A stretch of 14,801 nt of DNA from a virus: UHGV virus genome UHGV-0275206; one strand, 5' to 3'. The notes under the pieces are model-generated. The model had not been told where the DNA came from, ran no database searches, and saw only the letters and a program-made list of their open reading frames with translations. The position numbers and the translations under genes were made by a program. Shown here piece after piece: positions 4,567 through 14,801 of the stretch; positions within the stretch are counted from its first letter, which is position 1; every line of letters begins with the position of its first letter.

Positions 4567-4639
4567 TAAGTTGTGTGGCGAAGTAACCACTCTTAACATG
4601 CTAAATGAAAAAATGCGGACCGCGTTAGTGATTTTTCAT

Positions 4640-4695
4640 CTCTTTCACGTTAATTTAAGTCTACAGGATAGAATTAAAAATAAACTGAGGCAAAA
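4640..4695. promoter_or_regulatory. AT-rich divergent promoter region: candidate late promoter PR' (minus) and promoter for the plus-strand cargo operon
   Basis: Minus strand: -35 TTGCCT (plus 4688..4693), 17-bp spacer, -10 TATCCT (plus 4665..4670), then a -10-like TTAAAT element in the initially transcribed region, as in lambdoid PR' sigma-dependent pause sites. Plus strand: -10 TAGAAT (4669..4674) with a weak -35, then SD GAGG (4687..4690). Confidence 0.35.
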
Positions 4696-5559
4696 TTGGA
4701 TAGTTCTACCACTTTCAAAGTCTTCTATGATGCCGAAGATGAAGAATTAGCACAGCATAAGATTGATGCAAAAACACTAAGTTTATCAATAGGGTCTATG
4801 GCTGACCTTATTGCAAAGGCGGATCGAAATCTTAATGATGGGCAGGAAACAGTCAAATTGATGGTTACCGCTCCTGCTGCACCTGGATCAATCGGTGTTA
4901 TTTATTCAATGCAAGAGTTAGTTCCTCATGCTGTCGATGTCGCCAAAGCAATTGGACTCACTGTTGCTGGTGGTGCATTAGCTGGTGGCTCAGCTCTTGC
5001 ATTGATTCGACAATTGGGGAGTAGAAAGGTTATTTCTGTTACTCGAAAGGTCGACACACAAGAAGCAGTATTAGAACTTGATGGAGAAGAAATTATTTGT
5101 CATGAGGCTGTTGCAAAGTTAGTGACTGATCCCGAAATACGACAAGCCTTAGTTAACGTAGTTAGAGCACCACTAGATGGTAAAGAGCGCCCGATCTTCA
5201 AAATTACTGATGATAATGGAGAAGAGATTCTCAAGCTTGAAGGAGAAGAAACTGAAGAAATCAAACCACTACCACGTGGTACTTTACTAGAAAAAGAAGT
5301 TTCTATTGATGAGGTTAACGTCAGATTCATTCAAGTAAACTTTGAAGGGAATAAGGGATGGCGAATTGATTATCTTGGTGAAGAACATTCAGTAAGCCTA
5401 GATGACAATGTTTTCCTTTCGCAGGTTCAGGCTGCAACAGTACAATTTTCAAAAGAGGACCTTTATGTTGTTGATTTAGAAACAACAAAAACATTTACTG
5501 CGCGTGGCGTAACAAACCGTTATGCTATCAAAAAAGTTAAACGTAGACGACCAGCTTAA
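4696..5559 (+). CDS. Cargo gene A: acidic 287-aa protein of unknown function with one Gly-zipper hydrophobic segment
   Basis: TTG start 5 nt after SD GAGG. GC about 37-40% by eye versus about 50-55% in flanking phage genes. Segment AKAIGLTVAGGALAGGSALALIRQLG carries GxxxG motifs; basic C-terminal tail KKVKRRRPA. No catalytic motif recognised. Confidence 0.6.
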   Translation: MDSSTTFKVFYDAEDEELAQHKIDAKTLSLSIGSMADLIAKADRNLNDGQETVKLMVTAPAAPGSIGVIYSMQELVPHAVDVAKAIGLTVAGGALAGGSALALIRQLGSRKVISVTRKVDTQEAVLELDGEEIICHEAVAKLVTDPEIRQALVNVVRAPLDGKERPIFKITDDNGEEILKLEGEETEEIKPLPRGTLLEKEVSIDEVNVRFIQVNFEGNKGWRIDYLGEEHSVSLDDNVFLSQVQAATVQFSKEDLYVVDLETTKTFTARGVTNRYAIKKVKRRRPA

Positions 5560-11601: not shown

Positions 11602-12155
11602 GCGTTAGTTTCTCCACAACCAGAAGCAATCGACGCCACGACGCCCGGAGCTGCACACTCGCGGGCGTCATTACTTTCTGAAATGCAAAAAATTTTGTAG
11701 ACAAGTGCTGCATGCTCCTGCAGCTTCGAAATTGAGAGATACAGCTCGTCGTTAATTGCTGTCTTCTCATGCGGTTCCACTACACCGTCTTCGATTGCTG
11801 AACGAATCTGTTTTGAATAACTGCCGATCTGTTCAATGACTTCCAGCAGACGCTGGTTAATATCGGCGTTGTCCACATCCTCGACGTCAGGAAGAGACAC
11901 AAAGACGCCATTTGCAGACTGCGCCACAGCGTCAGCAATGAAGTGAGTTCCACCAGCACGTTGCAAAATCATTGCCCATCCCAGCGGGAAAATCTGATCG
12001 CCATCGGCACGAAGGCGGTTAAATAATGCGTTCTCTGTTACATCCAGCCAGTCAGCTGCTTCAGCGTAACCCCCCGGCAACGCTGCGATAGTTTTTCTGA
12101 CAGCTTTCACGTACCACTCAGGCTGTTTTTCTACTTTCCAGTGATGCTTACCCAC
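11598..12155 (-). CDS. Early regulatory protein in the cII position (possibly Phage_CP76 / CII-like family)
   Basis: 185 aa from a GTG start preceded by a strong SD (AGGAGGT, 5-nt spacing) overlapping the cro-like gene end. Family assignment is from position and vague recollection only. Confidence 0.45.
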
Positions 12156-12408
12156 GGTTCACCTCCTGTTCCTGTGGTTTAAACCCATTCTGGTTTTGGC
12201 TAGATTGAAAACGTGCCGGATAAAGAATCTGCATTTCGCTGACTTCACCCTTAAAAAAATTGGCTAAACGTTCTGCAAGCTCGATAGATGGAATCTGCTC
12301 CAGCCTCTCAATACGACTCAACGTCGCTGGATTGACTTGAACACCCGCAGCAACATGCTGCAAAGTGAAACCATGCGCCTTACGCACATTTCGTAATGGT
12401 GATTGCAT
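12148..12408 (-). CDS. cro: Cro-like HTH (XRE-type) early regulator, divergent from the repressor gene
   Basis: 86 aa; HTH segment FTLQHVAAGVQVNPATLSRIERLEQIPSIELAERLANFF; SD GGAGGG upstream; first gene of the minus-strand early operon. Confidence 0.75.
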   Translation of the reverse strand: MQSPLRNVRKAHGFTLQHVAAGVQVNPATLSRIERLEQIPSIELAERLANFFKGEVSEMQILYPARFQSSQNQNGFKPQEQEVNRG

Positions 12409-12505
12409 ATGCCCTCCAAATATTGCGCGTTATGCATGTTATTTCACGCAATTATTTTGCGCAAGTTGATTTGCTTATCACGCAATAAAGAAATGTAATA
12501 AACGC
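12409..12505. promoter_or_regulatory. oR-like operator/promoter region between the cro-like gene and the repressor gene
   Basis: 97-bp intergenic region with dyad sites of form TTGC-N7-GCAA: ttgcttatcacgcaa (12471..12485, perfect) and ttgcgcgttatgcat (12423..12437, imperfect), plus palindromes cgcaattattttgcg (12447..12461) and TTGCGCAA. The repressor ORF starts without an SD, as with leaderless lambda cI from PRM. Confidence 0.6.
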
Positions 12506-13198
12506 ATGAACATAGGAAACCGAGTCAGACAACTTCGCCAAGCGAAGAACATGAAAATCGCCGATCTCGCTGAAGCAATAGGAGTAGATGCGGCGAACAT
12601 CTCGCGCTTAGAAACGGGTAAGCAAAAACAATTTACCGAACAAACACTGAGTAATATTGCCAAGAGCTTAGGTGTTGATATTGCTGATCTCTTTACCTCT
12701 GCCCACAAAAGTAATACTGTATATAAAAACAGTAATAATGAGGATGTTGCGCAGGTGAAGGATGTGTTCCGTATTGAAATGCTGGATATCAGTGCCAGTG
12801 CGGGAAATGGCCTTATCCAGGGCGGTGATGTCATTGATGTGATTCATGCCATCGAATACAGAACTGATAATGCTGTATCAATGTTCGGCGGACGACCAGC
12901 CAATCACATCAAAGTTATCAACGTTCGTGGGGACAGTATGTGTCCAACCATTGAGCCAGGAGATCTCATCTTCGTTGATGTCAGCATCAATCAGTTTGAT
13001 GGTGATGGTATATATGTCTTTGGTTTTGATGACAAAATATACGTTAAAAGACTTCAAATGATTCCTGACAAACTGCTGGTGATTTCTGATAACCAGATTT
13101 ACCGTGAATGGGGAATTACTAGCGAAAACGAACACCGATTCATGGTCTTTGGAAAGGTCTTAATCAGTCAGTCGCAAACCCTTAAGAGACATAATTAA
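12506..13198 (+). CDS. cI: CI-type prophage repressor: N-terminal XRE HTH plus C-terminal S24 (LexA-like) autopeptidase domain
   Basis: 230 aa; IADLAEAIGVDAANISRLETGKQ HTH; C-terminal GDSMCPTIEPGDLIFVD...YVKRL with Ser/Lys dyad; candidate Ala-Gly cleavage site in DISASAGNG. Confidence 0.88.
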   Translation: MNIGNRVRQLRQAKNMKIADLAEAIGVDAANISRLETGKQKQFTEQTLSNIAKSLGVDIADLFTSAHKSNTVYKNSNNEDVAQVKDVFRIEMLDISASAGNGLIQGGDVIDVIHAIEYRTDNAVSMFGGRPANHIKVINVRGDSMCPTIEPGDLIFVDVSINQFDGDGIYVFGFDDKIYVKRLQMIPDKLLVISDNQIYREWGITSENEHRFMVFGKVLISQSQTLKRHN

Positions 13199-13217: not shown

Positions 13218-13240
13218 GGCCACCGAAAGGTGGCTTTTTA
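13218..13240 (+). terminator. Rho-independent terminator after the repressor gene
   Basis: GCCACC-GAAA-GGTGGC (13219..13234) followed by TTTTT (13235..13239). Confidence 0.8.
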
Positions 13241-13252
13241 CTACCTATAAAT

Positions 13253-13289
13253 TTGCATACCTCGCAAATATCACTTGCATATCTCGCAA
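13253..13289. promoter_or_regulatory. oL-like pair of repressor operators
   Basis: Two perfect TTGC-N7-GCAA dyads, ttgcatacctcgcaa (13253..13267) and ttgcatatctcgcaa (13275..13289), 22 bp centre to centre; same architecture as the site in the cI/cro intergenic region. Confidence 0.55.
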
Positions 13290-13452
13290 TTTAATTTTAT
13301 CTTTTGTTCCAGACCAACTACAGGATTACAACAAAATCTGGTTGCAACACGGTGCATGTGTCGTAAGCAGTCAGTAAATGTCAAAAACGAACAGGCAGGA
13401 CGCCCACGAAGTAGCCGCCTGGGGCATATGAAGTCCAGGATGATTCGTTAGC

Positions 13453-13478
13453 AACAAAAAAGCGCCCTACAGGACGCT
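13453..13478 (-). terminator. Rho-independent terminator downstream of the zinc-ribbon gene (minus strand)
   Basis: Minus strand GCGTCC-TGTA-GGGCGC (one G-U pair) followed by TTTTTTGTT. Confidence 0.6.
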
Positions 13479-13517
13479 TAGCTCTTTAGCAATCTGGATA
13501 TCCACAACAGTAGTAAT

Positions 13518-14009
13518 CTACAGATTGCCGTTAAGTTTTCTGGACAACTCCTCAATGGATGGAGGCGATACGTAATCCGGATTTTTATTCATCAGAAACT
13601 TATTTTCACAGTGGAGGCACCTGCTTTTATGAAAAAGCTCATCTTCGCTAACCGGGAATGGTTGAAGTATCGATACTATCTTTTGTCCAAAACATTTTGG
13701 GCAAAGATGCATGGTTATGCTGCCACCGTTCACGATTACCTCCTTCGAGTATACAAAAGTACCCGACTCAAGTTGGTTAAGGATATAGCCTTCCGTCTGA
13801 GCCTCAAAGTTTTCGAATTCTGCAATTTTAGCTTTGAGAGAAGCATTTATTTCTTGATAAGAGCCCACCAGTTCAACGAGAGACACGCATTCGCGCTGAA
13901 TAGACGCAAGCTTTGAGTTCAGCTCACCAATAGCCGCATTTACTTCAGCTTGAGTTTTTGCCTCGTTCATTAGTTTTGCAATCTGGGCTGTTTCACGAAT
14001 AGCCGTCAT
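13518..14009 (-). CDS. Hypothetical coiled-coil protein with C-terminal CxxC...CxxC zinc-ribbon (about 163 aa from ATG 14009)
   Basis: From ATG 14009: MTAIRETAQIAKLMNEAKTQAEVNAAIGELNSKLASIQRECVSLVELVGSYQEINASLKAKIAEFENFEAQTEGYIL...MHLCPKCFGQKIV...SRCLHCENKF. The ORF-track N-terminal extension (MWCRVPPGAWRRLH...) looks non-coding. Own terminator; orientation convergent on cI. Confidence 0.6.
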   Translation of the reverse strand: MTAIRETAQIAKLMNEAKTQAEVNAAIGELNSKLASIQRECVSLVELVGSYQEINASLKAKIAEFENFEAQTEGYILNQLESGTFVYSKEVIVNGGSITMHLCPKCFGQKIVSILQPFPVSEDELFHKSRCLHCENKFLMNKNPDYVSPPSIEELSRKLNGNL

Positions 14010-14047
14010 TGCTGCCGTTAATTCAGCGATCACATTGAATACTCTTA

Positions 14048-14093
14048 TTGTTGTTGGGGATATCCAGATTAACCGAATCCTTGTTGTTGGGGA
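14048..14093. repeat. Two perfect 13-bp direct repeats ttgttgttgggga, 33 bp apart, upstream of the zinc-ribbon gene
   Basis: Copies at 14048..14060 and 14081..14093, each (TTG)3GGGA; located 40-85 bp upstream of the ATG at 14009 on the minus strand. Confidence 0.6.
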
Positions 14094-14295
14094 ATAACCA
14101 GGTCCACCTCGCCTGATGTGGCTAAAAGCAGGCACATAACAGCTAAGTATTTTCAACCAGAGAGAATCCTTAGCGTTGTGGTGAATGCGGCTCAGCGCAC
14201 GCGGGTTAAGGTTGAGGCTGACAGTCGACCTTCTGTGGATACCCACCCGCCTGGTGTGCAACCTTCGCCAGGCACCGGGAGGCACCCGGCACCAC

Positions 14296-14366
14296 AACTT
14301 TATGCTGTGTGTAGTCCTGGCGGTACCAGTTTGTACCCTTGCTTCCGGCTGGTACCGTCCTTTTTT
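14296..14366 (+). ncRNA. DicF-like small RNA candidate ending in a strong intrinsic terminator
   Basis: CCUGGCGGUACCAGUUUGUACCC resembles the DicF core (UUUGGCGGUAUCAGUUUUACUCC) as I recall it. Hairpin GGCGGTACCAG (14319..14329) with CTGGTACCGTC (14349..14359), then TTTTTT (14361..14366). No ORF with an SD in the region; lies in the pL-side operon, as dicF does in Qin. Confidence 0.45.
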
Positions 14367-14367
14367 G

Positions 14368-14454
14368 CAAAACAGAGAAGAGCATCACCGGACGACGGGC
14401 TCATAACCCAATCCATCCGGGCGGCTGCCACCGCAGGTGTTCTTCTCTGTTTTG
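14368..14454. repeat. Long-range perfect 14-bp inverted repeat enclosing 59 nt (extended RNA stem-loop candidate)
   Basis: caaaacagagaaga (14368..14381) and its reverse complement tcttctctgttttg (14441..14454), between the DicF-like terminator and the next gene start. Confidence 0.6.
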
Positions 14455-14503
14455 TGGAGAAACCAACCGACCTTGCAGGGTCGATATGATGAGGAGCAGC
14501 AAA

Positions 14504-14731
14504 ATGGCTAGCGAACGCAGTACTGATGTGCAGGCATTTATCGGGGAGCTGGACGGCGGCGTATTTGAAACCAAAATCGGCGCAGTTCTCAGTGAGGTCG
14601 CTTCCGGTGTGATGAACACGAAAACCAAAGGGAAGGTCTCACTCAATCTGGAAATCGAACCGTTTGATGAGAACCGTGTGAAAATCAAACACAAACTCTC
14701 ATTGAACCGCCCCGGAAATCCTGGAGACTAA
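14504..14731 (+). CDS. Small early (pL-side) gene truncated by IS insertion; native part about 66 codons, last 9 codons come from the IS end
   Basis: ATG 14504 preceded by SD GAGGAG (7-nt spacing). MASERSTDVQAFIGELDGGVFETKIGAVLSEVASGVMNTKTKGKVSLNLEIEPFDENRVKIKHKLS, then ...LNRPGNPGD* encoded by the IS terminal repeat from 14703. Confidence 0.5.
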   Translation: MASERSTDVQAFIGELDGGVFETKIGAVLSEVASGVMNTKTKGKVSLNLEIEPFDENRVKIKHKLSLNRPGNPGD

Positions 14732-14801
14732 ACTCCCTGAGAAAGAGGTAAACAGGATGACTAAAAATACTCGTTTTTCCCCCGAAGTCCGTCAGCGGGC
14801 G
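14703..14801 (+). mobile_element. Left end of an IS3-family insertion sequence (IS629/IS1203-like), continuing beyond the window
   Basis: Terminal inverted-repeat-like sequence TGAACCGCCCCGGAAATCCTGGAGACTAAACT from 14703, then SD GAGG and orfA start. Confidence 0.75.
14757..14801 (+). CDS. IS3-family transposase OrfA, N-terminal fragment
   Basis: ATG 14757 translating MTKNTRFSPEVRQRA, the typical start of IS629/IS3-group OrfA (HTH part of the transposase). Confidence 0.75.
   Translation, partial: MTKNTRFSPEVRQRA

Follow-up and report, generated by a model that had tools for sequence, protein, structure and literature searches.

Prophage small RNAs (sRNAs) of the STnc100/PasD family are the closest described relatives of the element analysed here. 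STnc100 is a multi-copy prophage sRNA; in EDL933, eleven copies are annotated, each of which has reads, and a northern blot confirmed one of them (PMC5331693). The PasD sRNAs are Hfq-dependent and abundant in data from RIL-seq, in which interacting RNAs are ligated and then sequenced (PMC8550237), and their relationship to STnc100 is stated in a 2026 preprint (bioRxiv 10.64898/2026.05.13.724894). The DNA under study is a stretch of 14,801 nucleotides (nt) from the virus genome UHGV-0275206, below called the window, and the element in question lies on its + strand between 14175 and 14454, in the leader of yfdP. It consists of a scaffold domain (14175–14298), a 3' module made of a single-stranded linker and an intrinsic terminator (14299–14366), and a long hairpin (14368–14454). 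Judged by sequence, this element is a below-threshold, divergent pL-leader variant of the STnc100/PasD family. An initial annotation, made from the letters of the window, described a DicF-like sRNA candidate followed by a perfect-stem hairpin, and missed the upstream structured domain at 14175–14298, the relationship to STnc100 and the recurrence of the hairpin module.

The scaffold domain and its conservation

At relaxed thresholds, the best Rfam match was STnc100 (RF02076), aligned to 14145–14368 on the + strand with 40.3 bits and E 3.8e-7; the alignment covers model positions 1–206, that is, the full length of the model without truncation. The core of the matched region is the scaffold, which is closed by a helix of 9 base pairs (bp), P1, formed by GUUGUGGUG (14175–14183) and CACCACAAC (14290–14298). 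In its interior, the linker AAU leads to a first hairpin, followed by an inner helix with a hairpin inside it, another hairpin, and the last hairpin CCGGGAGGCACCCGG, which abuts P1. The predicted fold of 14140–14370 has a free energy of -93.1 kcal/mol (z -3.5).

Related units were collected by exact-word scans of IMG/VR with three anchors, at least 120 contigs each; since the first and last loops are part of the anchors, the choice of loci is tied to them. Among the IMG/VR matches listed, the units share their ends, which fall into two types, and their interiors of about 20–150 nt differ completely. P1 comprises 7 to 9 contiguous pairs in most of the 263 distinct units listed; at least 8 contiguous pairs are found in 59% of these units, compared with 5% when the 3' strand is swapped for that of another unit. 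Over 135 distinct phage variants among these matches P1 covaries, with four or five pair types at each of pairs 5–7 (pair 6 is G-C in 69, A-U in 42, U-A in 14, C-G in 5 and G-U in 5 variants); examples of variant helices are GCAUGGUG/CACCAUGC, AUGCAGUG/CACUGCAU and GAUUGGAUG/CAUCCAAUC. Additionally, the internal helices of the scaffold keep their pairing through double, compensatory changes between the E. coli copies and the copy in Salmonella phage ST64B. The covariation of P1, together with the double changes in the internal helices and in the terminator described below, indicates that the scaffold is a structured RNA. The mEp460 counterpart has the same ends and a different interior, and gave no Rfam match.

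These changes also bear on the idea that the element has no RNA function of its own, its conserved ends being recombination boundaries of lambdoid phages and the open reading frame (ORF)-free state and the folds being by-products. Compensatory changes that keep P1, the internal helices, the terminator and the long hairpin paired despite differing sequence are difficult to reconcile with this idea, as pairing between the two ends is not required of recombination sites. Although mosaic breakpoints do coincide with module edges (14050, 14104 and 14318) and the modules turn up in numerous combinations, also across unrelated types of phage, we regard such an origin as quite improbable.

The scaffold is preceded by a conserved lead-in (14111–14174, + strand), to which STnc100 model positions 1–30 align. 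It consists of a small hairpin GCCTG...CAGGC followed by ACATAAC, and then a hairpin AGCTAAG...CTTAGC (14141–14174) abutting the scaffold. The GCCTG...CAGGC hairpin with ACATAAC resembles the 3' end of a preceding scaffold. In SfV-type phages the conserved block begins at about 14104.

Of 5426 complete E. coli genomes, 1825 carry at least 80% of the 322-nt element (14139–14460). The element also occurs in phages SfV, SfII and SfIV, in ST64B at about 77% identity, and in others. The e14 prophage of K-12 carries all of it at about 90% identity, long hairpin included (NC_000913.3 ~1,201,069–1,201,460, minus strand; positions 4570–4960 of our locus L341). This copy lies between ymfJ and xisE on the operon strand, directly upstream of xisE-intE, and is annotated as ymfH; none of the records examined annotates the element as an RNA. 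K-12 CPS-53 was also considered as a carrier and rejected, since the region upstream of its yfdP is different and has neither the element nor the hairpin.

We conclude that 14011–14503 is non-coding. The initial annotation had called this stretch ORF-poor, which is not literally so, as two ORFs overlap the RNA region: one of 123 codons with a GTG start on the + strand (14118–14489), and a long one with a TTG start on the - strand, reaching 14297. Neither behaves as a gene, however, and the proposal that the region is a non-coding RNA stands, as no coding signal was found. The extent of the TTG ORF to 14297 is not real because the phrog_1244 profile begins at an ATG near 14010. The + strand ORF is the counterpart of K-12 ymfH (103 codons; 'putative protein YmfH' in RefSeq), and a protein product could be argued from the mere existence of both open frames. 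We consider such a product very improbable. A 1-nt deletion, with further indels after it, shifts the frame of about 30 central codons between the window and the 90%-identical K-12 copy, and indels in ST64B are not multiples of three, including one of 20 nt within the terminator loop. The ORF moreover runs across a terminator, and the pattern of variation preserves base pairs, not codons. Since its frame is not conserved with the ORF of the window, ymfH is probably a mis-annotated RNA locus.

The 3' module and its likeness to DicF

Downstream of P1, the + strand continues with the single-stranded linker UUUAUGCUGUGUGUAGUCCU (14299–14318), which has an A/U-rich 5' end, a candidate RNase E site, and holds the motif GCUGUGUGUAGUC (14304–14316), unpaired in the consensus fold. 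Besides E. coli phages, Cronobacter phiES15, Klebsiella Kp4866-6 and several IMG/VR contigs, with either scaffold type, keep the motif, although the terminators behind it are unrelated; in Salmonella ST64B it reads GCUGUGUGAAGUC, with one substitution. Its conservation while the following terminators differ makes GCUGUGUGUAGUC look like an sRNA seed. The intrinsic terminator (14319–14366, + strand) has a 13-bp stem (14319–14331 / 14347–14359), a 15-nt loop and a U6 tract, written as TGGCGGTACCAGTTTGTACCC...CTGGTACCGTCC and then TTTTTT at 14318–14366; the repeat finder returned its 9-bp perfect core (14321–14329 / 14349–14357). Its predicted fold reaches -20.9 kcal/mol (z -2.5; 3 of 200 shuffles as good), and five double changes preserve the stem in ST64B. 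The GC-rich stem and the U-tract are present where the initial annotation had placed them, and so is the layout of a DicF-type sRNA, an intrinsic terminator after a single-stranded stretch.

Membership in the DicF family itself did not hold. The Rfam DicF model (RF00039) scored 15.7 bits on the window (14306–14360; E 1.7, multiplied by 4227 families), far from its gathering score of 48 and from the 76.7 bits of true DicF. The difference in the 5' seed noticed in the initial annotation is real (AUGCUGUGUGUAGUC in the window versus UUUCUGGUGACG in DicF), and the CUCCG anti-Shine-Dalgarno loop, by which DicF pairs with the ftsZ ribosome-binding site, is absent from the module of the window. A true DicF orthologue, which would block ftsZ translation and cell division, is accordingly hardly to be expected here: besides the low score, the differing seed and the missing loop, the energy of a duplex with the ftsZ leader was matched by 64% of shuffles. 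These findings outweigh the shared terminator sequence TGGCGGTAyCAGTTTkTAC, the same kind of operon position and the related scaffold that adjoins DicF in the Qin prophage.

The likeness to DicF does not, for all that, appear to be pure chance. The best local alignment of DicF in the whole window, both strands considered, falls at 14318–14365 and was equalled by 11 of 400 shuffled DicF sequences. Conversely, a profile of window-type 3' modules built with DicF excluded found DicF as its sole match in the 4.5-kb Qin locus (E 0.005), over the terminator only and with the seed not covered. We conclude that the module is DicF-style but not DicF.

The Qin locus offers a second point of contact. The dicF-dicB spacer of K-12 (L125 2433–2612) is filled by a scaffold of the same type, UGUGAUGUGGUGAAUGCGGCUGAGCGCACGCGG ... 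CACCUGGAGGCACCAGGCACUGCAUCACA, located immediately after DicF (34.4 bits on STnc100 at L125 2433–2642), and its last hairpin shows a compensatory change (CCUGG/CCAGG). As a scaffold of the same family directly follows DicF, the window and the Qin locus are built from related modules. The closing helix of the Qin scaffold is predicted to be 27 bp long and to take in the DicF U-tract (z -4.4); placed shortly before dicB, this helix has the look of a duplex of the RNase III type. The 190-nt DicF precursor was considered as a possible scaffold joined to DicF and rejected, as GGUUGUGGC...GCUGCAAC near its expected 5' end is unused in the minimum-energy fold and Rfam found no scaffold there. Two other prophage sRNAs were rejected as identities of the window module: svsR/C0293 of the SfV-like prophage NC-SV belongs to the 3' end of cI, and comparison of C0293 with the window gave no significant match; HnrS, a 66-nt multicopy prophage sRNA, is set apart by its location in the late region.

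The long hairpin, tRNA-like features and a modular family

The terminator is followed on the + strand by the long hairpin, a 14-bp perfect inverted repeat found by the repeat finder exactly as the initial annotation had described it: arms CAAAACAGAGAAGA (14368–14381) and TCTTCTCTGTTTTG (14441–14454) enclose 59 nt, 87 nt in total. G-U pairs extend the basal stem to 20 bp (14367–14386 / 14436–14455), and this stem leads into a three-way junction. The predicted fold of the 93-nt hairpin reaches -46.6 kcal/mol (z -6.2), and none of 200 shuffles was as good. It lies, as had been proposed, in the leader of the next gene, which is yfdP, and it is plausible as an RNase III substrate: its predicted 20-bp stem is a continuous duplex of about two helical turns, as expected of such substrates.

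In other phages, a long hairpin (C)ACAAC-AGGUAAGAGCA...UGCUCUUUCC lies directly upstream of the scaffold in many cases. Several of these upstream hairpins carry the interior motif of the window hairpin, ACGGGnnCAUAACCCAAUC, and the helix around it varies (CCGGA/UCCGG, GCGUG/CACGC, GGCGGCA/UGCCGCC). The comparison indicates that the long hairpin is a separate, recurring module, not a one-off; RNAalifold analysis of the hairpin homologues was limited by the poor MAFFT alignment of their 3' arms. In the window, UUUUGUGGAGAAAC after the hairpin aligns with the scaffold start GUUGUGGUGAAUGC, and the hairpin looks like a module whose scaffold was lost. The rest of the yfdP leader (14455–14503, + strand) has a small hairpin (14468–14483) and a Shine-Dalgarno sequence GAGGAG (14491–14496); UGGAGAAACC in this leader resembles a degenerate scaffold 5' strand, and GTGGAGAA and GTGGTGAAT correspond in the alignment.

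One inner arm of the hairpin carries CGGGCUCAUAACCC, which is identical to the anticodon stem-loop of the E. coli initiator transfer RNA (tRNA) in an alignment with metZ. The identity covers 14 nt (CGGGCTCATAACCC, 14396–14409), with small changes in the Salmonella, Klebsiella and other phage copies, and other such hairpins hold a T-arm-like GGTTCGAnTCC. The hairpin modules may be tRNA-derived. A wider version of this idea takes both scaffold and hairpin as tRNA-derived or tRNA-like punctuation for RNase P- or RNase III-type processing, with a polycistronic non-coding transcript being cut and the variable interior being cargo, or as decoys for tRNA-directed nucleases. The cloverleaf-like plan of the scaffold would suit such a role, with its 7–9-bp closing helix, 3-nt linker, 4-bp hairpin, variable middle and abutting last hairpin, as would the adjacency of units to real tRNA genes and the frequency of the T-arm-like sequence in hairpin modules. 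In type II units, moreover, the first loop GCUGAU is complementary to the last loop AUCAGC. This complementarity is followed through very few variants, in loci anchor-selected on those same loops: one alters both loops (GCGAU / AUCGC, a co-deletion) and in one the pairing is lost. The CAU loop varies too, as the K-12 e14 copy has GGGUUAAUAACCC, and neither ARAGORN, which found no tRNA in the window, nor Rfam, which gave no tRNA match at E up to 10 in 13900–14801, recognised a tRNA. Altogether, we consider the tRNA-like role improbable.

Several observations concern the wider occurrence of these modules. The IMG/VR loci L005–L305 (e.g., L029, L091, L103, L146, L158 and L197) make up a very large modular scaffold family; scaffold units form tandem arrays with a spacing of roughly 253 nt in L146, L158 and L197, and real tRNA genes often adjoin them (L007, L029, L091, L098). 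The junction sequence CAGTGCTCTTTCCGTTGTGGTGAATGCGCAGGCTGATGCGC is present in at least 160 phage records, from genomes of about 40 kb to 158 kb, mostly of Klebsiella and Escherichia, among them Klebsiella Magnus, ZCKP8 and SopranoGao and Escherichia nithesis, RCS47, HK633 and CUS-3; in the phage matches listed, it carries no annotation. In type II units (e.g., L079, L033, L093), the 3' arm UGCUCUUUCC of the upstream hairpin is followed by GUUGUGGUG, and the two arms flanking the scaffold are mutually complementary, so that an alternative fold with a continuous stem of ~22 bp can be drawn. A literature search by scaffold sequence strings returned a quantitative PCR primer for STnc100 as its sole match.

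A tentative reading, which we hold to be possible but doubtful, is that the RNA of the window belongs to a modular RNA system of enterobacterial phages that is very large and has gone unrecognised, and in which the scaffold would have a function of its own. The members would have a cloverleaf-like scaffold with a hypervariable interior, often preceded by a long tRNA-derived hairpin, would be arrayed in tandem next to tRNA genes, in virulent as well as temperate phages, and would include STnc100, PasD, the RNA after DicF and K-12 'ymfH'. The role of the scaffold would then go beyond carrying a seed and might lie in processing, stabilisation, interaction with polymerase or Nus factors, or action as a decoy.

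The pL leader: proposed mechanism and comparison with known systems

The prophage is lambdoid, of the SfV/SfIV/ST64B/CPS-53/e14 kind, and the window contains its immunity region. The cro gene (12148–12408) lies on the - strand, and cI, carrying an S24 peptidase domain (12506–13198), on the + strand, followed by its terminator (13218–13240). Directly past this terminator are two operator-like sites TTGCATAnCTCGCAA (13253–13289, + strand), the presumed pL promoter/operator. The motif type recurs between cI and cro (12471–12485), and is also present after cI in ST64B and mEp460. These two genes and the operator sites mark the + strand beyond 13290 as a pL-type operon, in agreement with the pL-side placement given in the initial annotation, and a pL promoter at the operator-like sites would be the source of the leader transcript.

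The mechanism that we favour, and regard on balance as somewhat probable, is that processing of the pL transcript yields an sRNA to which Hfq binds, and that the stem before yfdP is of the RNase III type. It builds on the structures, conservation, covariation, family relationship, operon position and absent coding signal described above; pL transcription, partial termination, processing, Hfq binding and pairing in trans are extrapolated from what is known of the family and of DicF. Upon inactivation of cI, transcription from pL (about 13250–13300) would proceed through roughly 1 kb of untranslated leader, in which the scaffold at 14175–14298 would fold, and a fraction of the polymerases would halt at the intrinsic terminator (14319–14366). 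The precursor could give rise to a stable product of about 192 nt, scaffold plus 3' module, and an RNase E-type cut in the A/U-rich linker could release an sRNA of roughly 66 nt (14299–14366) with hairpin and U-tail, the form that Hfq would bind. This ~66-nt sRNA would pair with its targets via the conserved GCUGUGUGUAGUC. Read-through transcripts would carry the 20-bp hairpin (14368–14454), and RNase III-type double-strand cleavage there may separate the sRNA part from the yfdP...int message and set the 5' end of that message.

Several points weigh against this mechanism. The STnc100 score of 40.3 bits lies below the gathering score of 47, and no match was obtained at the gathering threshold; the ST64B counterpart reaches 35.1 bits, with only part of the model aligned. 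A stable transcript and Hfq association are reported for other family copies only. The stretch right before the terminator is not U-rich, and a search of the window for targets of GCUGUGUGUAGUC returned its own locus as the only perfect complement. As a promoter consensus scan of 13400–14801 found none, the RNA would be made only on induction. Finally, a scaffold this large and conserved is unneeded for a simple base-pairing sRNA, and may have another role.

Such a role could be exerted in cis. Phage HK022 uses put RNA in place of N, and the main rival to the sRNA mechanism is a put-like or boxA/nut-like antitermination device, in which RNA polymerase would be modified, or Nus factors recruited, by the scaffold alone or together with the hairpin, so that the untranslated leader escapes Rho and the terminator is read through into yfdP...xis-int. 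The arrangement would fit: the element stands between pL and the first ORF with a strong terminator in the path, the e14 copy lies directly upstream of xisE-intE, and the pL-side regions examined (PhiR49_1, mEp460, ST64B) contain no annotated N-like gene. In L086, L120 and L082, a consensus-like promoter with operator palindromes lies immediately upstream, which would place the 5' end of the transcript at the scaffold. Additionally, many type II units are preceded by UGCUCUUU, which we take to be the core of rrn boxA; the window copy, however, has AAUCCUUAGC instead of this boxA-like motif. Kinship with HK022 putL was examined and rejected, as the pL-nun spacer, when read and scanned with Rfam, showed neither sequence similarity nor a shared STnc100 match. 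Family members are also found downstream of stx2B in late operons and in virulent phages, and stable Hfq-dependent small RNAs are reported for the family, which speaks for the sRNA mechanism. We therefore rate the cis-acting device as rather unlikely.

Other features of the window accompany the leader. An accessory gene, phrog_1244 (function unknown; 13518–14010, - strand), is antisense to the pL leader and has its own terminator (13460–13479); three direct repeats of ~18 nt each (14042, 14075, 14164) lie upstream of it, and gene content at its position varies between phages. The start of the pL leader is conserved piecewise, 13300–13360 being common to mEp460 and 13385–13450 (GAACAGGCAGGACGCCCACGAAGTAGCCGCC...) to ST64B, which suggests that 13300–13460 may hold more structured leader modules. 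The first ORF past the RNA region is the 5' part of yfdP (14504–14702, + strand; phrog_33467 and phrog_204), whose start at 14504 corresponds to the one annotated in K-12, at the equivalent ATGGCTAGC. The gene is broken at 14702/14703 by an insertion sequence, presumably of the IS3 family and IS629/IS1203-like, and alignments to other genomes all end at 14702; 14703–14801 comprises an inverted-repeat-like end TGAACCGCCCCGG and then an ORF beginning MTKNTRFSPEVRQRA. Near the antirepressor gene, mEp460 (L003 323–511) and ST64B (L004 409–597) have Rfam matches to C4 antisense RNA (84 and 80 bits) and to isrK (67 and 64 bits, respectively); the window gave no Rfam match to either.

If the sRNA mechanism is true, a common element has been mis-annotated: about a third of complete E. 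coli genomes hold at least 80% of it, and in K-12 it is called a protein. DicF would be one case of a general design, in which terminator-ended sRNAs arise from pL-type transcripts beside a conserved scaffold, and GCUGUGUGUAGUC would be a new candidate seed. The extent of excision and early-left expression after induction may also be under the control of the terminator and the 20-bp hairpin, given that xis-int in e14, and yfdP...int in SfV-like phages, come directly after them. The K-12 copy makes the whole reading examinable in K-12.

Compared with STnc100 and PasD, the window shares the closing helix followed by GUGAAU (14175–14186) and the first hairpin, a last hairpin CCGGGAGGCACCCGG that is invariant and directly adjoins the closing helix's 3' strand (14275–14298), the single-stranded spacer before an intrinsic terminator (14299–14366), and the prophage location. 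It differs in the scaffold interior, in the spacer with its seed, in the extra long hairpin module that follows, and in its place: it belongs to the pL leader, ahead of yfdP or, in e14, of xis-int, whereas the described STnc100 copy is found 75 nt downstream of the stx2 operon and PasD in the vicinity of Q and lpxR. With the HK022 put RNA it has in common that a structured RNA occupies an early-operon leader; size and topology differ, the window element lies about 0.9 kb from pL, and an antitermination role is hypothetical here. The long hairpin resembles known RNase III stems (the lambda N-leader, sib sites, rRNA precursor stems) in its duplex of at least 20 bp and, as in phage, in its position on an early transcript just upstream of the first coding gene; it differs in the three-way junction with a tRNA-like arm, and is known here from its predicted fold. 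With DicF, finally, the window shares an sRNA-like module whose end is the first intrinsic terminator in a pL-type operon under repressor control, a similar terminator stem (GGCGGUAyCAG...CCGyC plus U-tract) and a scaffold of the same family, which in Qin follows DicF. The seed and the ftsZ-pairing loop are not common to the two, and the order of modules is reversed: the scaffold precedes the sRNA in the window, whereas DicF precedes the scaffold in Qin.

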